Shown here: positions 1 to 63,372 of the stretch, piece by piece
Numbering within the stretch: position 1 is the stretch's first letter
Layout: each line of letters begins with the position of its first letter
Origin: Raillietiella orientalis
Taxonomy: Eukaryota
NCBI GenBank assembly: GCA_036172245.1
Contig: JAYWIR010000016.1
Span: forward strand, 1,364,001 to 1,428,000
DNA length: 64,000 nucleotides
Direction of reading: 5' to 3'
Notes under the pieces: model-generated
What the model was told of the DNA's origin: nothing
Database searches by the model: none
What the model saw: only the letters and a program-made list of their open reading frames with translations
Translations under genes and position numbers: made by a program

Positions 1-1078
1 CCGAGTTTGGCAAAACGCCCCGCGAGGGTGTTTATGCCCCTCTTCTGAACAGCGGCGCGGCGGGAAGACCGGCGTCAGGGAGGCGCGACTTACACGGGTG
101 GGACAGGCGCTCCGATCACGCACGGGCTCTGCAGGACGTCATCGTGCAGTCCACCACGTGTGCGTGGGAGCAAAGAACCTCCCTAGCCACGACACTGACC
201 TCTCTCACGGAGCACCTGGGCAGTAACCAGCCGGCCAAATGGGAGGTCCGATGTAAGATCGGTGCAAGAGCGAAGGAATTAGGTGGTTGGACCACGGACC
301 AGCTCACGGACGCTGCGGCCCCAAGTGCCCCATCGAAAGGACTATTGCGCTGGGGTGAACTTCTGGGAATCCTACAAGAAGACCTTGAGTGGCTCCCAGC
401 GCTGAAGCACAACCGGGCCCTCCCCTTGAAGTGACACGAATCAGCACTTTTGCTGCTGCATTGGGACCTCCCGTGCTACGCCCGCCGGTCTCACTTGAAC
501 CGGGGGCTCTGGACCCCAACTGCTGCAAGTGCAGGCAACGGAAATCCTCCCGCATGTGCTTGTACACTGTGTTGCCCTCCGGCCCCTGTGGTTGCGTTAC
601 GCAACGGCCCTTGGTGCACTAACAGACAATCCCAGATACGTGATGATGCGCCTCTTCGTGCGCGCGATGTCCTTTCGCCTGTCGCTTCTCTAGAAGCTGT
701 TTGCTACCTACACGGGATTCTGGCAGCGGCCTACGCGAGAGGAGGATGGCGCGATAGGGACTCCATCTTCTCCCTGCACTTCATGAGGACGGCAGCAAGA
801 TGGCTCCACCTGGGACATACTTGGATGGAACTTGCCGGCATTCTGGAAAGGATGCAGAGGACACCTTCCAGCTCCCGGTGATCCCATCCCTAACCCTCCC
901 AATTTTTTTGTATACATTTTTTTATTTTATTTTTGCTTGCTCCCTCCCCTCCGCTGTCGAGGCGAATCTCGCCGGCCTGCCTGCCGGTTACTCGAGCATT
1001 TTCTGATAGTGTGGGACCGATGGTCCTACACATGTGTGTTTATTTTTTATGATAAGCGTCCCGGAGTGACTGGGTGAT
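1..1078 (+). mobile_element. L1/Tx1-like LINE, family A, 3' fragment (degenerate ORF2 C-terminus and 3' UTR)
   Basis: A frameshifted CCHC finger reads DPNCCKCRQR(fs)EILPHVLVHCVALRPLW at about 512-595. The ORF ends WLHLG..ELAGILERMQR with a stop at 879-881. A T-rich tract, stem-loop and terminal hairpin follow. Homologous to copies at 10.5, 15.4, 56.4, 58 and 62-63 kb. Confidence 0.8.
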
Positions 1079-6436: not shown

Positions 6437-6990
6437 CTCCACCTGCCTCTCCAGGGCACTGATTTACAAATAAACTGACAGGATGAGAACTCCGTTCCCG
6501 AGAGGAACAAAAGTAGCTTCTTCGGGAATGACCACCAGCAAGCGGGCCGGCTTCCAGGGAAGTCCGGAGCGGGAGGAAGGAGACAATAAATAAATGAAAA
6601 AGAAAGATAGAGAAAGGAGGTTGGGGACGGGGATGGGAGGGATCCTTTGGTTTAAGCCACTGTTTTCCTTCCCAAAACCGGCGCTGAACGACGGCAACCT
6701 CCCTGGAGAATTCTCGCTCCGGGCGAAGCCACCTGCAGCCATGCGGGTGGGCGGCGGGGATGGGCGCGCGGACGTGGCATCCACGGCGCCTCCCGGGAGA
6801 GGAGTCAGCCGCGCGCGAAGAATCGCCGCCGCAGCAGTGAGTACACTGAGGCGTCCTCTGGGCTCAGGAGTGACCGTAAACGTCCTCTGCCGCATGTCCT
6901 CGAGGGTGCTGCATTCCAAGAGCTGGGGGACGCCCCTCCCCCGGAAACCAGGCACCTGCACTGTTTGCACTGGAAACCCTAGCGCGGAAA
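6437..6990 (-). mobile_element. L1/Tx1-like LINE, divergent family B, 3' fragment
   Basis: The minus strand reads CKQC...(fs)QLLEC, which is CCHC-like. It is followed by a T-rich tract, the inner hairpin ccggc-ccgctt-gctgg and the terminal motif gtgccctggagaggcaggtg, matching the family A 3' architecture. Confidence 0.55.
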
Positions 6991-10454: not shown

Positions 10455-11800
10455 GTCACCCGGGGCGTTTATTATAAACAGGACAACAGATGCAGTACAA
10501 GGCCCCACTACGGTCAACACAACAACGGACCTGCCGGGTCGTCGGTGCGCAGACCGACTTGACTCTCCACGGCAGCGGAGGGGATGAGGGAAAAACAAAA
10601 ACAAAAATAAAACAAAATTAAAAAGAATAATTCTCTGGAGGGTTGGGAAGGGATCACTGTCCGCTTGGTGGAGGGTCCATCCTTTGCAGGATGCCGTCGA
10701 GGTCCTTCCGCATGTTTCCCAGGTGGGACCATCGGGTTGCTATTCGCAGGAAGCGAGCCGCATACTCGATGACGTCCCTATCGTTTGCATCTTCTACTTC
10801 GTCGGATCCACTCCAAGTCGCCACAATACCGCGCTGCTACGGCTGCGGATGGCTGCAGGGCGTCCCGCACGAAGAGGAGCCGAAAAACGTCTCTGGGAGG
10901 GTTGCCAACCGGGATCCCGACGGTCGACCTAAAACGTTCCCAAAGGGGCCGGAGGACAACACAGTCAAGAATCAGATGCAGGAGGGATTCTCTTTCCCTC
11001 GGGGTCGTCCCCGCGTTGCAGGGGAGACCCCAGTGCAACAACAGGAGCGCCGACTCCGGCCACTTTAGGGGGAGGATCCTTGATCTGCATAAAACTGGGG
11101 GCCACTTCAGCTCATCCGTCGGGATGCCGAGCAGCTCGCCCCGTCTCTTTATTCCACGCGGGAGGACACTTCGGGTCGTGGCGTCCGCCAGCTGTCCCAT
11201 GGTCCAAACGCTTAACATCTTCCTTCTGCCTGCAATCTCGCAAGTGACCTGCCACCTCGGCGTCTGGCTAGTGCCAAGTGCCCTCCTCAGGAAAGGCATC
11301 GCCGCAGCTAGGGGGGTCATCTCCATCCGCGTGCTCCTGGCTGGACACTCCAGGACCTTCTGCAGCGAGCAGCGGGATAGGTTGCTCAAAAGCAGGCAGT
11401 TCCCTGCTTCACTTGGCAGTTCACATGCCAACTGTTTCTTCTAGCCATGCGCTAGAGTTGGCGGGGCAACACGTCATCCAGCTGTTCTCCATCTCCAGGG
11501 TGGCTATGCGTCCGAGAAGGAGGCCGCATCTTCTTTTCTTCTTGCCGCGGCACAGAAGATGAGACGCGAGTCCATCCGTTCCGGAGACACAGCGGGCGGG
11601 CCGGCACGCACTAAGGAGTGCTCCAAAACTTTGCTGCGATGACCAGGGTTCGCCATCGCAGCTGAATTTCCATCCGCTCCAGAGTCAGGAGGCCAAGACC
11701 GCCATCCCGGCGCGGAGCGCACAAGTCCATCAAAGGGACTCGGGGCCTCCCTTTGCCCCAAAGGGCGATACGCAGGAGAAAAAAGGCCAGTAGCGACCCC
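10455..11800 (-). mobile_element. L1/Tx1-like LINE, family A, thumb-to-3'-end fragment
   Basis: LWGKGRPRVPLMDLCAPRRDGGLG matches the L1-clade post-RT motif W-x-G-K-x-x-R-V...P-x-x-x-GGLG. Then LLHWGLPC, HLILDCVVLRPLW, RLLFVRDAL, WSHLG and the conserved UTR stem-loop at 10531-10575. Confidence 0.82.
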
Positions 11801-11829
11801 ACGAGGAGATCGTTACTATTGGCCTAGGG

Positions 11830-15434: not shown

Positions 15435-16950
15435 CACCGGGGATCTCCAGGGCGTTTATTGAAATCAATAAACATTACAATAGGATGGAGCCATTAGCCC
15501 TATCAAGTCCTGTCATTCGCACAGCTTGCCGGGCGTCCGGTGTGCAGACTGGAGAGGATGGCATCGACAGCAGAGGGGATGGGAAAAAGAAAAACAATAA
15601 ATAAATAAATATGTATATGTATATAAATATGTCTAAATCTGGGGGGCATGGGAAAGGGTCACTGCCTGCTGGAGACTGCATCCTCTCCAGGATGCTGGCA
15701 AGTTCTTCTCTGGTTTTCTCCAGGTGGGACCATCCCATCCCGTTGCCCTCCATAAAAAAACATAGGGTGAAGTGGATGGCGTCCCAGCCGCTCCCTCCTT
15801 CACTGGAGTCGTTCCACGCTTTTACAATCTCGCGTAGGCAGCAAAGCGCTACTAGAGATGCTCCCGGAGGCAATGCGTCGCGCACGAAGAGGGGTCCCTG
15901 GGGCTGCCACATGGGATCCGAAGGTCGTCGCTGCAAAGCATCCGGACAACGGCCCCAAGGCAACCCAGTCCACGAGCAAGTTTTTCACCCGGGCAAGCCG
16001 GGGCTTTTATTATTAAAATGGTACAAAGAAAAATTCCATAATAAAGTCTTGTCTTCTCAAAGTCCACGAGCAGGTGCGCGACGGTTTTCCACGTTTTCCT
16101 CCGCACCTGCTGCAATTTGGGTCCACACACGCCCCGTGTCCAGCAATGTCGGCAGGTGTTGCATGGGAGGCTCCGGTGCAACAGCAGAAGCGCCGACTCC
16201 CGCCATTTGAGAGGGAAGTTGTGGTTGTTCAGGAGAGACGGGGTCCACTCGATATCCTAACGGAGAATGCTCAGCAGCTCACCCCAAGACGCAAGTCCTT
16301 TCGGCTGGAGACTTGGAGTCGCAACATCGGTTAGCTGGCTCGTGGTCCAACTAGTGAGCGTCCTGCTTCTGGATGAAATCTCAAAGAAGGCTTCCCATTT
16401 CGCCGGTAGGTTGCTGCTGCCAAGATGCTTCCTCAGGGTAGGCAGCGCCGCGGCAAGGGAAGTCCGTCCTGCCCGCGTACACTTGGTTGGTGGGATGCAC
16501 GATGATCTCCTGGAGCGAGCAGTTGTTGCAGAAGGAGCACAGCAGTCAATGCCGTAACTCCGGTCTCGGCACGTCGATCTTCACCCGCGAGCGCACGGTT
16601 TCCTGCAGATAGGCACTGCCGTTCTCGGGGCGGCAGGAGATCCAGGTGTTCTCCCTGGTCTGTGCATCCACGCGCTGCAGTTGCAGCCCGCAATGACACG
16701 TTGCAGAAGCGCCGTGCAAGGAAAGAAAAGAGTTCCTCGCAGCCGACAACTCGCCTGACCAGGAGGTGTGCCGATTCGTACCAGTGGGTGCTCCAGAGCT
16801 ACACCACTAGCGCCAAAGTTCTCCATTGAAGCTGCCGCTCCAAGCGTTCCAGAGCCATAAGGCCGAGGTCACTATTGCGCCGCGGAGCACACAAGTTCTT
16901 GAGACGGACTCGGGACCTCCCTTTGTGCCACATGCCGTCGAGGAGCCTAC
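15435..16950 (-). mobile_element. L1/Tx1-like LINE, family A, thumb-to-3'-end fragment
   Basis: MWHKGRSRVRLKNLCAPRRNSDLGL, PLFVRDALPP and WSHLEKTREELASILERMQ, followed by the 3' UTR and the terminal motif at about 15435-15455. Confidence 0.82.
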
Positions 16951-18389: not shown

Positions 18390-20280
18390 CACTGCCAACG
18401 GCTTCACCGATCCACGTGCCGGTGGATCGGCGAGGTTCACCTCGGCAACGGGGGGAAGGGGGACAAACAAAAAGCGGAACAAAAAGGAAAGGAAAATACG
18501 TAAGGAAACCTTCAGGCAGGGGATCCCCTGGTGGTGGACTCTCCCTGATCACCTTCCGTCTGACGGTGGTCATCTCCAAGATGGGAGGGTGTGACCCCCG
18601 TGCGGACTTCTGGGACGCACTCTCTGAGGACCACAGGGCAGCCGCGGGCGGACCTGCGACGGTGCCCTAGTTCTTCCGTCCCTTCTCGGCGCAGGCCCTC
18701 GGGAATGACAACCGCTACTTCCATTCATCAACCTGATGAATGGCCAGATCCTCCATCCTCCCTTTCTTCCTCTTTAGTCGCGCCCCTGGAGAGGTTCAGG
18801 TCCCTCGGACCCGGGGGCCGGAAGATCACTGGGGACCTTTCAGTCATCCGGGATGCGCTCCTACCAAGGATCGGCACTCACGCCGGTCTCCGTGGAGACG
18901 CGGACTGCTCCTCCTCCTGCCCTCTTTCTCCGCCTTGAGTCCCGCTAGCAAAGCATGTAGGGTCAAGGCGTCGAGGACGACGACGCCCCTGGAAACGAGG
19001 AATCTTCAATACGAGAAGAGTGAGTGTTGGGGCAGGGTTGCTGCTCTGCCGGCGTTCCAAGCAGGCGGGCCCCAAGGGCGACACTCCGCCCCGCCCTCAG
19101 GCGCGTGGATGGAGGTGCAGGGAGGGAAGGGAAGTCTTCGGAGGTGTTGAGTACAGTGTCCTTGGGGACGCGGGAGCGGGGAGCAAGGGAGCGGGGCGAG
19201 GTGCCGCTGCTCCCATTCGTGCGCGTGCATTCGTGCCGGCGGACGCCGCAGACCTTCCTGCCCTGCTCTTCCCCGAAATGGTCTTGAAGAGGCCTGCAGA
19301 GGTGCCTCCCACACCCTCGCCGACGGCGGAGCATCAGTGCATGTCCTCTTGCCCAGGCGCTCTCCCTAGCTCGGGATCCGGCGTGAAGACGGGCAGCCTC
19401 CCCATGGCTCGATGGACGGGAACGAAAGGGAGCTCGGGGGAAGAAGAACCCGGAGCAGACAGGGCCGATTCTCCCCCTCGGGGTGGAACGCGTTGGCTGC
19501 CCCCTGAGATTTCCCATCGGACAGTCGGTCGGGAGAAGATGTGTCCGGGACTCCTGGAGAGTCCCCTTGAGGGTGGGCGAACGGCTGAGAAAGGACCCCC
19601 TCAAGACAGCTCCTAAGCCTGGGCGAAGTGCCGCGTCCCACAGGTGGAGGGGGTGAGGCAAGGAGGGAAGAAACCGAAGGGACTGTTCCTCCGTTTCTCG
19701 TTTCCAAGGGAGACGTTCCTTTCTTTCATCGGGAGAATGAAGGGGTGGGGAGCAGAGGAGGCGACCAACCCCAGCCGCAGACTCTCCACACGGGATCGGA
19801 AGGATGTGGAGGAGGCGCGCCCTTTCACACCCCAAGACGAGAACACCCAACCCTCCCACCCACCCCCACGGACCCGAAGAAGTCCCCCGGGAGAACGAGG
19901 AGACCTCGCAGGGAGGGGAAGGAACGACCGGAAAGGAGGGAGAGGGGGAACGTGCTGCCCCGCAAGGGACCGCAGCGGTGTCCGATCTAAAGGAGAGTCG
20001 ATTCTCCCGTGGTCACCAAGCTGCCAGCTCGTCTCCCTCCCCTAAGACGAGGGCAGTGTTCCGCCCCAGGGAGCCGGTCCCTCGGATCGGCTGCCGGAGG
20101 AGCACATGGAAATGGGAGCGCCCCCTCCCGAACGCCCGAGGTTCCTCACGGGGGGCTACCCTCCTCCGACCAGCGGGAAGGCGGTAGCCCCGCAGGCCGC
20201 CGTCGACCCCAGAGCGGCGGTTCCTAAGGGTCTTCCAGTTCACTCGCATGGCGGGATCGGCAGGGGACTTCCCCATGCCT
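18390..20280 (-). mobile_element. L1/Tx1-like LINE, family C, thumb-to-3'-UTR fragment
   Basis: MRVNWKTL...DGGL (thumb), LKIPRFQGRR..LDPTCF (finger region) and SHLG near the ORF end, with the UTR stem-loop at 18392-18448. The segment 18530-18730 is homologous to the reverse complement of 52100-52310. Confidence 0.68.
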
Positions 20281-38362: not shown

Positions 38363-40033
38363 CTATTCCTCTAGAGAGCAGCCCCCAAGGTCGTCCACTC
38401 CGAATGAGGGCAGGATTCCTGGAAGAGCGGGTTTTTCTCCTCTACTTCTCCTCAGGGAGGGAGGGACCGCTCCCACCTTGGACGTCCGTGTACACCGCGG
38501 GGTGTTTGCCGCACCCGAAGCCGTAGGACGTGATGCCCACCAGCACGTAGCGCTTGTTGGTCTTGAGCAGGATGGGGCCACCGCTGTCCCCCTTCGGGAG
38601 AGAGTGTAGAACGAGATGAGGTGGCGTGTCCTTACCTGGCAGGTGTCCTTGTTCTTCCCGGACACGCACAGGTAGTTATTTTGGGGGACTTGCCCCATGA
38701 GCTCCCTCTCGCACTCGGCCTTGTCAAGCACCTGCAGATCGACCTCCTGGAGGGTGGAAGGGGCCACGGAGAAACCTGAGTGGCGGGAGGGAGGGCGAGC
38801 TGAGAACCGCGGGGCATCTCAGAGCTGTCCGGCCGATCCGGAAAGGTGAGCGGAAGAAGCGTCGGAGGAAAGGGAAAGGGACCCGAGGGCTCACCTGAGG
38901 TCAGCACTCCCCAGCCAATGGCGGTGACCTGTCTGCCCACCAGAGCATCCCCAGGCAGCCGGGGCAGGCAGGCGGCGCGCACATTGTCAAGGCTGTCGAA
39001 CGGGATGCGATCCCGGAGTTCCAGGAGGGCGGCGTCGTAGTTCCAGGATCCGCTTCCGGTGTACAGCGGGTGCACCACCACGCGGCGGACAGCGACGAAG
39101 ACGCTGGGTAGCTCGCCGAAGTCGGACAGGTCGTGGTCTCCCAGGTCCACCAGCAGCGACCGCGCCCTCTTCCTGCGGGAGGGACCGAGAAATCCTTCCC
39201 ATCCCTCTTCGTTTCCCCCACCCCCCTTTATCCCGGAAGAGAGACCTTTCCACGCAGTGGGCAGCGGTCATGACGTAGGCGGAGCTGACGACGGTGCCCC
39301 CGCACGTGAACACCAGATTGTTCTTCTTGGAGACGCGGTACAGGGCCGCCATCCACGGGTGACTCCCCTGGCGTGAGGCAGATCCTCCGACGATGCGGCC
39401 TGCCTTGGGCCTCCCACAGTCTGGAAGACCGGGATGACCTCCCTCAGCGAGCGCCTCCCGCCCATCCGGAGCGAAAATCCGGACCGCAGCTTCAGCGGCG
39501 GCGGTCCGCGCTTTCCTTCCGGTCCCCGGATCGAATGGAGGCCGCAGGAGACACCGCCACCCTTCCACCCTGTCGAGGTGGGGGGGGGGCGGCGGAGGCG
39601 GGGAGCCACGCGAGCCCCTGACCCCGATCTCTCTGTTCCCCCGGGTGACCTGTCTCCCGGCACTGACCGCACTTCTCCGGGATGGGCTTTGTTGCGTTCC
39701 CCTCCTGCGGGAGGGCGGTGCTCGATTCGCCGGACCACTGCTGCGCATCCGTGCTGGCGTGGGGGGGCACCTCTGGGCTTCCCGGACTGCACGACATCAG
39801 CCTGGCCGTGGATGCGGAGGCGGCCAGCCACCCGATCTGCAAGACGGAAAGTCCCTGAGGGACGCTCCCTGAGGGAGGAGCGGCACGTGCGCGCGGGGAG
39901 CTTCCGAGTCCCGCTGCCCTTCCCGGAGATGGGAGTGGAGGACAGCAGGACTCGGAGGCTCCACCATCCCCTCCGGCAGGGTCCCGGAGCCGCTTACCAG
40001 GATCACGAGGGTGCCCACGGCGCGGGCGCTCAT
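38363..40033 (-). CDS. Secreted trypsin-like serine protease (peptidase S1A), 7 exons, 322 aa
   Basis: Splice model complement(join(38363..38418,38477..38591,38636..38775,38895..39172,39246..39420,39668..39836,39998..40033)) gives 969 nt, open frame, all introns GT-AG with consistent phases. It has a hydrophobic signal-like N-terminus (MSARAVGTLVIL+IGWLAASASTA), CDCG before the activation site R|IVGG, TAAHC (His), YDAALL (Asp), AACLP, GWG, DTCQ|GDSGGP (Ser, with S1 Asp), GITSYGFGCG and PAVYT. The first and last exons are less certain than the catalytic exons. Confidence 0.93.
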
Positions 40034-56370: not shown

Positions 56371-56760
56371 CCCGACTTTGCCGGGGCATTCACTGCTGAA
56401 AAAACAATAAGAAAAGTACACTGAAATGTTCAAAGTGTGGCGAAACACTCGGCTGCACGTGCTCGAAACCGGCACGCAGACAGGAGAGTTCCGTTTGCAC
56501 AGCGACGGGGAAGGGGAACCCGGGAAGAAAGGGAGGCAGACGACAAAAGAGGAAAAGCGGGAGGAAAAGGGGTCGCACTTGTCTGGGAGACGTCCTCAGC
56601 ACCCTGTTCAGGATGACGACAACTCCTGTCCGCGTCTCGCCCAGGTGGGGCCATCCCGAGAGGGTCTGTCAAAAAGATGGCCACCCAGTGGATGGCGTCC
56701 CTTCCAGGGTCTCGGAAAGTCGGGCGCCGCAACCGTGACCTGAGCTCCTGAGCATCTGGA
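56371..56760 (-). mobile_element. Family A LINE extreme 3' fragment
   Basis: GRDAIHW, atggccccacctgggcg and catcctgaacagg as in the 57.8-58.8 kb copies. Terminal motif tgccccggcaaagtcggga. Confidence 0.75.
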
Positions 56761-57029: not shown

Positions 57030-58150
57030 CCAGGGGAATTCTGCATTGGCGGCCGCGTGGCTGCGTGCGGTCCCCACGCATGGCAGCACCTGGTGTCGCG
57101 GGTTCGAACCCCCCTCACCCGGGGAAAGACGCCAACAAATGGGAGGATGCGTCGTGGCTTTTGAGTCTCCGCTGATGACGCTGATTGGCCTGTGGGCTTC
57201 GGGTGCAGCACTGGTGAAAGCAGCCGGAAACCGAATGCCCCCGTTGGCCGGCCGGGATTGGGAGTTGACCTTCCGAGGTCCTTCCAGGACAGCAAGGAGC
57301 CCTTCAGAGTTCCCCTCCAGTCGTGAAAATGGAGCCGTTGACACCCCTCGAAGGGTCGTCTTTCCAGAGCTCAAGAAGCGTGCCTCTCCCTTCAGAGAAA
57401 TTTGGAAGTTCCCCTTCAATGTTCTCTTCAGAGGAGTAACGAGTACTCTGGAGACCCCTCCCGGGGAGCACAAGGAAAGATTCCCTTCGAGGCTCCCTGC
57501 CGAGCGTAAGAGGAGCGGACTCCTTCCTCGAGAGCCTACCTGGCTTTGTAGGGCGGTCCCTCCGGAGTTGTCCCCTATAACTTGAGGAGTTACACGCATC
57601 CTCGGGTGGCGTGGTCAGTGCCAAACAGCTTCGTGATCCCCCTCTCCCCCCTAAGGAAGCGAACGGTTCTTCAGCACTCCTTGAGAACCATACACACAAA
57701 AAAAAAATAAACCTGGAAAGAAAGCAGCGAAACAGAAGAATCCGAAAGGGTTTCCATTATCCGCGTCTGGAACAAGAGGAATCCGCTCGAGGAGGAGGCC
57801 AGAATGGCAGGAACGCCATCCACTGAGCGCGGATCTTCCTGAGGACCACCTCGAGATGGCCCCACCTGGGCGCTATCCGGACGGAACTTGCGGCATCCTG
57901 AACAGGATGCAGAGGACGCCCGGCAGCGTACCGCGATCTCTTCCTCGACTCCCTGGGCATAAATTCTCCTCCCCGTTTTTTCTTATTTTTTTACTTCTTT
58001 TTGTTTTCCCTTCCCCCCCGCTGCCGAAGCGGACCTCGCTGGTCTGCGCACCGGTCCTCGGCAGGTTCATTGAGCGGACACAAAAATGTATTACCACAAA
58101 AATTACTCTAAGTCATAAATGCCCCGGCATAACCGGGTGACCATCATCTG
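57030..58150 (+). mobile_element. Internally deleted family A LINE (ORF1 end and spacer fused to last ~140 nt of ORF2 and 3' UTR)
   Basis: 57030-57760 matches the ORF1-end/spacer repeat. 57790-58140 matches the 3' end of the 58680-59050 copy. Confidence 0.75.
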
Positions 58151-58199
58151 CGTCTGGACAGCGTGATTCCGGCAAGGTGGGAAGTGACTTGCTGCATAG

Positions 58200-59060
58200 C
58201 AGCAAGGAAGAAACTTCTGGAGGCGTGGAGACTACTAGGGAAGTGACGGACGCTGCGACCCCGAGTGTCTCACTTCAGGGACTTCTACTCTGGGAAGAGC
58301 TGCTCGCAATCCCTTCTGAGGAAGTGAAGTGGCCCCCAGCGTGCTGGAACAGAGGCACCGTCCCCCTCGAGTGGCAGGAGTTGGCGTTGGCAGGAAATCC
58401 CGTACAAGGAGCGCCTTCACCATTGGACACGGAGGAGCGTGAACGCTCAGTGCAACAGCTGCGGGAAAAAGGAAGCCCTCCCGCAACTGCTGTCAGAGAC
58501 TGTGCCGCCCTGCGACCCCTTTGGGATCGCCTAGAGACTACCCTTGTAATCCCGACGGGCGGACCCAGGGGCATTTTCAGACGCCTCTTCGTGAGCGGTG
58601 CCGCACTGCTTCCAGCTGCATCCCTCGCAGTTTCCTCCTCCTATCTTCGCGGGATGATGGCGTCCTGGGACGCCAGAAGAAGAGGCCGAGATGGCAGGGA
58701 CGCCGTTCTCTGGGCGCAGATCTTCCAGAGGACCACCTCGAGATGGTCCCACCTGGGCGAGATACGAGCATAACTTGCCAGCATCCTGAACAGGATGCAG
58801 AGGAGGTCTGGAAACGTACTGTGATCCCTTCTTCGGTCCACTCCCTCCCCGCGTATAATCCCCCCTCCCCCCCCGTTTTGTGTGTTTCTGTTTTTTGGTT
58901 TTCCCTTTCCCTCACTCTGCCGAAGAGGACCTCACCGGTCTGCGCACCGCCCTTCGGCAGGTTCACTGCACGTGGTAGAACCCAGGGTTCGACCACACCA
59001 ATGTATTTTTATTACCTTACGTAAGAAATGCCCCGGCATAACCGGGTGATCATCATCTGC
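58200..59060 (+). mobile_element. Family A LINE 3' fragment, tandem to the previous copy
   Basis: EEVKWPPA, DCAALRPLW, RRLFV and RTTSRWSHLG. UTR stem-loop at 58917-58960 and terminal hairpin at 59029-59049. Confidence 0.82.
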
Positions 59061-62229: not shown

Positions 62230-63372
62230 TGCCCTGGTGAGGGAGGGCACGTGGATCTCCTGCCTCCCAGGGAACTGCACTGCCTGGCTTCAGGAGTCAG
62301 TTTCCGCATGGGCTAAGATCAACGGCTCCTGCGATACAGACTACTCCTACCTCCGTAGAGGCAGGTACGCTGGACAGCCTCTGCAGGAGATCGTTTCCAA
62401 CCCGCGGAAACTGCTGTGGGCTTCATTTCTCCCCCTTGCCCCCGTGCTGCCCTCCCTCAGGAACGCTAGGGACAGCCAGGAAGAGGCATCGTGGGAAGCA
62501 AGATTAAAAACTCTTGAAGGCGTGGACGACTCGGAAGCTACCAGACGCTGCAACCCCGAGTGTCCCGCCTAACGGATTGTGCGCTGCGGCGAGCTGCTCG
62601 GCATATCTCCGGAGGAGGTGAAGTGGCCCCCAGCGCTATGGGACAATGGCACCCTCCTCTTGGATTGGCAAGAGACGGCGCTGCTTGCGTCGCATTGGGG
62701 ACTCCTTTGCAGAGCACGCCTCTCCCACGGGGCACTCGGAAGTGTGGATGCCCGTTGTGCAGACTGCGAGGAACGGGAAAGGACCTGATCATCGAGTGTG
62801 TCGCCCTCCGCCCAATGTGGAATCGACCGTCGTCGATCCTGAACATTCCCGTGGGCGACCCGAAGAACATTTTCCGTCGCCTCCTGATGCGGGACGCCCT
62901 GCCAGCAGCCGCGTGTGTAGCAGTTCTCTGCAGCATCCTGGAAGCGGAATCCTGGACAAATGGACCGAGTCGAGGAGAGGCCGCAACAGCCGGAATGCCA
63001 TTCACTGGGCAGCCGTCTCCATGGAGAAGGCTTCCCGATGGCGCCGGCTACGGGCTGTTCGACCGGCACTTGTCCGCATCCAAACCCGGATGCAGAGGAC
63101 CACTCGCGCGGCGAACGGTAATCCCTTCCCTGCCCTCCCCTTCCCGGAAAACATTGCGCTCCCCTTTTGACTTTGTTTATTTATTGATTTTTTTGTGGTT
63201 TTCCTTCACCCATCGCCGACAGAGAGGACCTCACCGGCCCGCGGGCCGGTAACGACCAGTGCTCTGAGACAGGCGGAACCACGTGTCCTGCCTTGAAGAA
63301 CTTCAAAGACTTTGTTATGAGATTTTATTTTGTTCAAATTTTAATAATAAGTGCCCCGGCATTTCCGGGTGA
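62230..63372 (+). mobile_element. Family A LINE 3' fragment
   Basis: GELLGISPEEVKWPPALW, DARCADCEERE(fs)LIIECVALRPMW (CCHC region) and FRRLLMRDAL. UTR hairpin at 63233-63250 and terminal gtgccccggcatttccgggtga. Confidence 0.82.

Follow-up and report, generated by a model that had tools for sequence, protein, structure and literature searches.

This analysis indicated that a small hairpin, named H1 here, of the form CCGGY-CUGCGN-RCCGG and located in the 3' UTR of both old and young L1-group LINEs, is a real RNA structure that selection has maintained in an L1-group lineage, as judged by comparison among families. H1 is the first of four hairpins in a tail of ~150 nt. The structure is conserved, inserted copies decay neutrally, no poly(A) is present, the ORF2 is of the L1 type, and young lineages display a target preference. 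The original prediction, drawn from a window of 64,000 nt (the whole stretch of DNA that was analysed), included a selected RNA structure conserved across subfamilies with diverged coding parts, and this held: H1 is kept between lineage representatives with ~16-80% identity in the ORF2 C-terminus, values which decayed copies and short overlaps depress. The proposal of a cis RNA element in an L1-clade-like lineage was likewise borne out as regards the selected structure and the L1-group assignment, while the role of H1 in recognition by the reverse transcriptase (RT) is likely by analogy. The principle of 3' structural recognition is already known, and what is added here comprises genome-wide counts, a lineage-level test, a hairpin involving AAUAAA and a joint change of loop and foot in subfamily E2. 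The finding bears on how proteins of the L1 group picked out their own RNA at a time when mammalian L1 did not yet depend on poly(A). The monocot L1 case was built from sequence alone, and the genome studied here offers an intact ORF2, a defined target, a ~150-nt tail and naturally occurring compensatory variants, namely the three forms of the closing pair and the loop and foot of E2, which makes the recognition question directly testable. A portable RNA tail together with a sequence-specific L1-type enzyme would also be of interest for retrotransposon-based gene insertion.

The element and its copies in the window

The focal copy belongs to family D (family letters are labels of this analysis) and lies on the plus strand. 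A 5'-truncated remnant of the 3' part of a LINE ORF2 (57794-57936; tblastn against amino acids 1150-1184 of locus L166, 54% identity, E 7e-5) ends in a decayed stop at ~57934-57936, recognised from the sequence and from family comparison. The 3' UTR starts with a pyrimidine tract, successively C-rich, U-rich and C-rich (57937-58019), a layout which is the same in all families, and continues with H1 and its outer stem (58021-58064; CTGCCGA at 58021-58027, TCGGCAG at 58058-58064), delimited by sequence and lineage comparison. The inner stem-loop, CTGGT-CTGCGC-ACCGG (58039-58054), departs from the family form CCGGT by a C>T change at a CpG. Comparison with other family D copies indicated that H2 is a remnant (58065-58095), most of this hairpin being deleted, including the foot complementary to the H1 loop. 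It is followed by a decayed H4 (58100-58119), where a U-rich arm pairs with the AATAAA hexamer (CATAAA here, 58114-58119), and by the terminal hairpin H3, CCCGG-CATAA-CCGGG, with the element end ACCATCATC (58121-58148) and no poly(A). A second family D copy with an ORF2 remnant lies directly 3' on the same strand (58154-59057), with H1 at 58917-58960 (inner part 58935-58950), the foot CGTGG at 58971-58975, H2 at 58972-58996 and H3 at 59030-59048. A weak Rfam match to the Histone3 stem-loop just upstream of the focal copy (57660-57714; 25 bits, against a gathering threshold of 34) is probably due to chance.

All seven stem-loops cited in the original prediction were found where it had placed them. 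Besides the two family D copies, inner hairpins lie at 972-987 (plus strand; family A, C-G closing pair), 6536-6551 (minus; a decayed family G copy without outer stem), 10541-10558 (minus; family B1, with T-A for C-G at the fifth pair from the loop) and 63233-63250 (plus; family C, without outer stem). Two copies which had been said to pair less well, near 15540 and 56475, were located at 15537-15552 and 56469-56484, both decayed and on the minus strand. Other examples did not keep the meaning given to them. Indeed, ctggt at 58039 and gctgg at 6536, presented as covariation, are each a single C>T change at a CpG that leaves a G-U pair, and the outer stem tcgag/ctcga at 972 is the product of a 10-nt deletion and a CpG change with respect to its family. 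The copy at 18407, listed as a conserved member, is an isolated variant (18392-18456, minus strand) with family-A-like flanks and an enlarged stem; it has no relatives, its stem being unmatched among 28 genome matches, and neither AATAAA nor the terminal hairpin H3 lies downstream.

Taken alone, the hairpin pattern carries little weight in the window. CnGC loops on a 5-bp stem number 43, against 30±5 in 40 shuffles, which is not significant; CCGGNCTGCGNNCCGG with two mismatches occurs 10 times, against 7.3 expected; and in single-sequence folding seven of nine window copies reached z values of -1.1 to +0.6, no better than shuffles. The case therefore rests on position and lineage comparison. 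By frequency in shuffled sequence, proposed originally as a means of refutation, the bare pattern is near chance in the window. Genome-wide, CCGGNCTGCGNNCCGG has 1476 exact matches against 4 for the reversed control (210-Mb genome). Run on the window, covariance model R1 retrieved seven copies at E<1e-4 and ranked those at 6536 and 56475 amid noise. A Pfam search of 40 window ORFs returned a trypsin-family exon only (PF00089, E 1.3e-11; 38987-39796, minus strand, amid repeats), the LINE copies of the window being too broken.

The copies consist of 3' remnants of a LINE ORF2 plus the UTR, with variable 5' truncation and a fixed 3' end, as in the L1 group, and relatives are mostly 72-89% identical. 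Short non-autonomous elements, suggested by shared 5' ends of blast matches, were considered and rejected: homology extends variably upstream, and the boundary was the query's own truncation. An RT-containing frame gave 87 scored genome matches at 79-100% identity, and 39 of 40 fetched younger relatives have a matching 3' UTR. Locus L166 carries an open ORF2 of 1215 amino acids with Exo_endo_phos, RVT_1 and a weak zf-RVT match (E 0.0013, below the cut-off), and upstream of it an ORF1 with a weak zf-CCHC zinc knuckle match; endonuclease, RT, Cys-rich C-terminus and separate ORF1, the domain set of the L1 group, are all represented. In the PDB, the best match of this ORF2 is human L1 ORF2p (E 5e-45, with R2 at 2e-13), and its top database homologs, ~30% identical, are mostly RVT_1 proteins with zf-RVT, one of them named Transposon TX1. 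These domains and L1-type best matches indicate that the element is an L1-group LINE, an assignment based on similarity ranking rather than on a tree with named clades. The lineage is most likely an L1-group radiation, partly target-specific and without poly(A), provisionally labelled Tx1-like.

Most of the top RVT_1 matches in the genome come from another young L1-like family, in which no H1 hairpin was seen by eye. This second family (L031-L050) forms head-to-tail arrays which end in AATAAA plus CCCCAC-CC-N5-GG-ACT-TGGGG, without poly(A); in L037 and L049, a C-G pair of this terminal motif is replaced by G-C. One or more R2-like RT elements were observed at L043:1190-8054 (minus strand), with a C-terminal zinc knuckle and restriction-like endonuclease recognised by eye. 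Their 3' end adjoins antisense sequence that we take to be 28S rDNA, beside what is presumably the usual R2 site.

Conservation and compensatory change in H1

Tail copies were collected with the pyrimidine tract and the terminal motif as anchors, neither of which depends on the hairpin, giving 187 distinct copies, from which nine of low score were dropped and 178 kept. These were drawn from similarity, protein and pattern searches and from copies in their flanks, and are LINE-biased. A tree of ORF2 3' ends took in 157 of the 178, and modal bases were taken from 149 copies in 13 families. At this level all modal inner-stem pairs are paired (65/65 in 13 lineages; 63 Watson-Crick, 2 G-U). The closing pair is C-G, T-A or G-C depending on the lineage, the fifth pair from the loop changed from C-G to T-A in B1, and the fourth made the same change in I, H and J. 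This amounts to ~5 double changes between lineages: the closing pair accounts for at least two C-G/T-A changes and one to G-C, B1 for one more, and I/H/J for one or two. The covariation originally claimed is thus real at ~5 lineage-level events, but was overstated by the examples cited. In a hand-picked alignment of 51 rows, which leans to good copies and ignores relatedness, 94% of cells were paired, against 18-53% in slid controls, and none of 500 shuffles scored as high in pairing or covariation.

Within families, by contrast, the copies decay without regard to structure. In families of at least four copies (144 copies), decay was 7.1% in the stem, 8.2% in the loop and 7.8% in the flank, and in dead copies 54 single changes break a pair, against 6 double changes which keep one. 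It was thus the master elements that came under selection, whereas inserted copies decay neutrally.

These counts also bear on the idea that H1 is not selected as RNA but is an inherited GC-rich palindrome, whose covariation would come from two-strand CpG decay and quasi-palindrome repair. We consider this very unlikely, even though CCGG is self-complementary and contains a CpG, several of the examples cited earlier are CpG decay or deletion, and the bare pattern often arises by chance. The closing pair contains no CpG; in a hand tally of the first 100 matches listed, it was T-A in 56, C-G in 25, G-C in 11, T-G in 4 and mismatched in 4, that is, three paired states with few mismatches, where independent sides would give ~44% Watson-Crick pairs. 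At the CpG-containing pair, double changes far outnumber single ones (28 unchanged, 28 double, 3 and 6 single; hand tally of the first 100 of 924 matches listed). The 12 CTGGC/GCCAG double-change loci that were checked all belong to families I or J, which argues for a lineage state and not for CpG decay. The excess of pair-breaking singles in dead copies likewise argues that repair does not act on copies, and the H1 16-mer persists among lineages whose ORF2s are ~30% identical.

The outer stem behaves differently from the inner one. Its sequence is conserved and never compensatory, it is absent from lineages C, G, H and J, and it has a fixed mismatch in part of B1. Nor is a CnGC loop present in every UTR. 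In the young subfamily E2, whose copies carry long open frames, three loop bases differ, the loop reading CUAGAA in four of five copies and UUAGAA in the fifth. The inner hairpin is therefore conserved, whereas neither its loop (given E2 and the second family, where H1 was not seen by eye) nor the outer stem is universal. A genome search with altered loops returned 2138 matches, against 1423 for the control, and was mostly noise, one of 12 places fetched being a real copy. Another candidate pseudoknot, considered by eye in families A and D, would join GAACCU, on the 5' side of the internal loop, to AGGUUC, which follows the outer stem; it was rejected, since this pairing overlaps with the outer stem and B, E, C and G do not keep it.

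The tail, its end and its targets

From the stop codon onwards, the tail comprises ~80 nt of pyrimidines, H1, H2, a U-rich arm plus AATAAA (H4), H3 (CCCGG-N5-7-CCGGG) and a few bases. H2 is wholly replaced in sequence between families while retaining a stem of ~9-11 bp, weaker in family B; its arms read GTAGGGCC/GGCCCTAC in A, CAGGCAGAAC/GTTCTGCCTG in C, GTGGTAGAACC/GGTTCTACCAC in D, GTGGCTGGA/TCCAGCCAC in E and GAGCTGGAAAC/GTTTCCAGCTC in H. H3 has a fixed stem and a family-specific loop. An extra 100-nt segment was seen between stop codon and pyrimidine tract in L187 and L191 (family H) and in L135 and L206-L207 (family J).

A conserved 3' stem-loop with compensatory changes, as found in stringent tails, is thus present, but H1 does not occupy their terminal position: it lies 70-110 nt before the element end or AATAAA in most copies. 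The positional analogue of the UnaL2/ZfL2 terminal stem-loop is H3, which was missing from the original list, and not H1. The poly(A) junction of the relaxed type (mammalian L1) was not found either: no A-run of at least 7 occurs within 30 nt after H3 in any of the 178 copies, and 8 A in 10 nt occur in two. No SINE sharing the tail was seen among these copies, all found via LINE queries. Of 21 unclustered copies inspected, 16 have ORF2 matches and five do not, three of the latter being cut off at the locus end. The terminal motif had nine matches in metagenome contigs, none with H1 or ORF2.

AATAAA lies ~25-30 nt upstream of the element end. Among 137 copies whose hexamer is intact, 83 form an H4 stem of at least 5 bp including the TAAA of the hexamer, where 36.7 would be expected, a significance overstated by the relatedness of copies, and its extensions vary by lineage yet stay paired (C-G in E3, G-C in P, ACT/AGT in D). 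It is, however, not above chance in C, B2 and J. Such a stem invites the reading that the tail governs 3'-end formation or RNA stability via host factors. H1 would then serve, like the pyrimidine tract, as an upstream element, and H4 would hide AAUAAA and thereby keep cleavage and polyadenylation weak or under regulation. A loop common to very distant lineages would also fit a conserved host protein. This reading is unlikely in our view: besides the inflated count and the three families at chance level, it leaves the absence of poly(A) from inserted copies unexplained.

The flanks of young lineages point to preferred targets. In E1, 13 of 23 copies are followed by an antisense sibling ORF2 at amino acids 573-577 (KAFD codons), and four of 23 are tandem, followed by the 5' end of the next copy; two of five E2 copies share the 573-577 site, and in E3 five of 10 lie at ORF2 amino acids 274-275, with four more in tandem. 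E1 and E3 thus exceed the share of flanks in one sequence (>20%) given for the Tx1 clade in PMC4494074. No target preference was evident for A, C and D when their flanks were compared with the L166 ORF2 reference. Insertion sites were seen in the 3' flanks of L166, L171-L174, L186-L190 and others, tandem copies being separated by a duplication. L166 itself splits DLHKA|FDCV, with a target duplication of 8 exact bases (11 with one mismatch), and E1 and E2 copies end in AAAATCG, which resembles the target, even at other sites.

Further flanking sequences were observed. Possible antisense sites exist for B1 (4/16, amino acids 86-98) and B2 (2/6, amino acid 301). The 3' flanks of family I (L208-L217) and family A (L096, L109, L121, L128) contain shared downstream sequences unlike L166 proteins, which suggest further targets. 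An inverted repeat, TAGTAACGATCT...GAGGTCGCTACTGG, followed by a T/A run, lies 3' of ~7 family D copies (L002, L009, L012, L014, L023, L030, L053); in the window (11781-11821) it precedes the truncated 5' end of the 10541 copy and may be a target or a small repeat.

Proposed recognition of the tail

From a mechanistic point of view, the structured tail is probably a cis signal for ORF2p, that is, "stringent" recognition, with H1 as the conserved recognition element and H3 positioning the priming end, by analogy with other LINEs. Selection on master RNAs would maintain the tail, which ORF2p would bind in cis; the CUGCG loop of H1 on its 5-bp stem would be the element recognised, H3 would place the last few bases at the nicked target, and their annealing there would prime reverse transcription by microhomology, without a poly(A) tract. 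In line with this, ZfL2 ORF2p recognises the loop of a 3' stem-loop (PMC4176376), and here E1 copy ends resemble the target and L166 has a duplication of 8-11 nt. Other observations are less favourable. H1 is far from the end, unlike the terminal stem-loop of L2 elements; a loop common to lineages with ~30% ORF2 identity could equally indicate a host factor; E2 changed three loop bases although it is young and has long open frames; compensatory events are few and the inner stem is mostly conserved in sequence; the second young L1-like family lacks H1 by eye; and the 178 LINE-query-derived copies include no tail-sharing SINE.

Several known systems resemble this tail in part. In the L2 clade, ZfL2-1, ZfL2-2 and UnaL2 have an exchangeable stem within a required structure, a loop recognised by ORF2p and no poly(A) (PMC4176376, PMC3747384). 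The tail described here is likewise structured and without poly(A), but recognition of the loop is demonstrated for those elements and proposed here; they are of another clade, and their terminal stem-loop, with an element-specific loop, is followed by a short tandem repeat as these reports describe it. Here, the terminal H3 varies in its loop but not in its stem, the loop that is conserved belongs to a hairpin further upstream, and no repeat tail was seen. In the L1 clade, the monocot 1a lineage (LINE1-1_ZM, ZmSINE2/3) has a 3' hairpin with compensatory stem changes, from which stringent recognition was inferred (PMC3472496; PMC3747384). Both cases share L1-clade membership, a compensatory stem, conserved loop bases and a stringency read without direct assay. 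The monocot hairpin, however, is single, lies in the last ~45-50 nt and is shared with SINEs, whereas four hairpins are present here, with H1 70-110 nt from the end; and nearly all plant families end in poly(A) according to PMC3472496, whereas here neither poly(A) nor a SINE partner was seen. The contrast with poly(A)-reliant mammalian L1 drawn originally is accordingly less new, stringent hairpins being known in the L1 clade (PMC3472496). Human L1 ORF2p is thought to rely on poly(A) (PMC10830420), and a predicted stem-loop in the 3' UTR of human L1 and in Alu, conserved in position, was proposed as an RT signal (PMC5135761); it is comparable to H1 by position and proposed role, but human L1, unlike the element here, belongs to the relaxed type and has a poly(A) end.

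Two other systems compare by architecture or by target. The 3' end of avian and turtle R2 is a pseudoknot-hinge-stem-loop read by protein, with demonstrated compensatory rescue (PMC11601368). The tail studied here is also made of several structured parts with a pseudoknot, in this case a candidate, upstream of a terminal stem; R2, which has a restriction-like endonuclease, is unrelated at clade level to this L1-group element. Tx1-group LINEs target other transposons, such as Tx1D for Xenopus Tx1, and include crocodilian Tx1-Mar (PMC4494074). The present elements share with them an L1-type ORF2, >20% of flanks in one transposon target and tandem copies separated by a duplication, but their target is an antisense sibling LINE ORF2 (the KAFD codons for E1/E2), unlike those described in PMC4494074. 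No description of the H1 motif or of a structured Tx1 tail was found in literature mostly outside subscription journals and supplements.

As a refinement of recognition by ORF2p rather than an exclusive alternative to it, we tentatively advance that the H1 loop may pair with the 5' foot of H2 (YGYRG), as a pseudoknot or as a switch competing with the H2 base, the protein reading the resulting fold. With the foot anchored on distal H2 sequence, modal loop and modal foot pair at 5/5 positions in all but one of the 13 outer-stem lineages, of which five are represented by a single copy, and a loop partner is present in 93 of 159 copies, against 54.8 expected. In E2, loop (CUGCG>CUAGA) and foot (CGUGG>UCUGG) changed together, including a C-G>G-C transversion pair, and the two pair in all five copies; the E2 forms are CUAGAA/UUCUGG, while E1 and E3 keep the foot CGUGG. 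An E1/E2/E3 alignment of 3636 columns was scanned for sites that are complementary to the loop in every lineage yet not the same in E1 as in E2. The H2 foot alone qualified, and among 27 possible three-change loops only the actual E2 loop fits a UTR site. Cognate duplexes reach -3.8 to -6.6 kcal/mol, against +0.6 and +0.7 for swapped E1/E2 combinations.

This is nevertheless one concerted event, found post hoc, and the remaining foot variation consists entirely of transitions. C has no loop partner (0/18 at the foot), G, H, J and M have none at a fixed place despite a retained CUGCG, and B2 is out of register (1/6). The sixth loop base is paired in 5/13 lineages only, and in L220, a further altered-loop copy, the foot does not match. 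Minimum-energy folds also place the foot in a pairing within H2, hence competing pairings. In one E2 copy the 3' arm of H2 matches, and template-switch copying could therefore link the loop and foot changes. The E2 change is thus suggestive only of a pseudoknot or switch, which might possibly constitute a new form of a known 3' recognition signal. The fuller proposition is more doubtful, namely that an L1-group LINE recognises its RNA via a loop/foot fold in a four-hairpin, poly(A)-independent, AAUAAA-hiding tail, convergent with the R2 pseudoknot-hinge-stem, in an AP-endonuclease element which inserts sequence-specifically into the RT codons of its siblings.

Young elements lie inside other transcribed elements and their ends may need trimming, which raises the question of a self-cleaving ribozyme, or of a dimerisation (kissing) signal, that would trim or pair read-through transcripts. 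UGCG (via wobble pairs) and the CUAG of E2 are self-complementary, but a 4-nt palindrome within a 6-nt loop is common by chance, and none of the Rfam covariance models matched the hairpin, either in the window or in seven loci. Compared by eye, the helix order of the tail is also unlike HDV or hammerhead cores. We regard this explanation as extremely improbable, and recognition of the tail by ORF2p remains the preferred reading.

As a separate observation, a single copy at L204:837-894 has an inner stem which is fully changed (GGGAGC/GCTGCCC), whereas its outer stem is retained, as are its loop (CTGCGT) and its foot (TGTAG).
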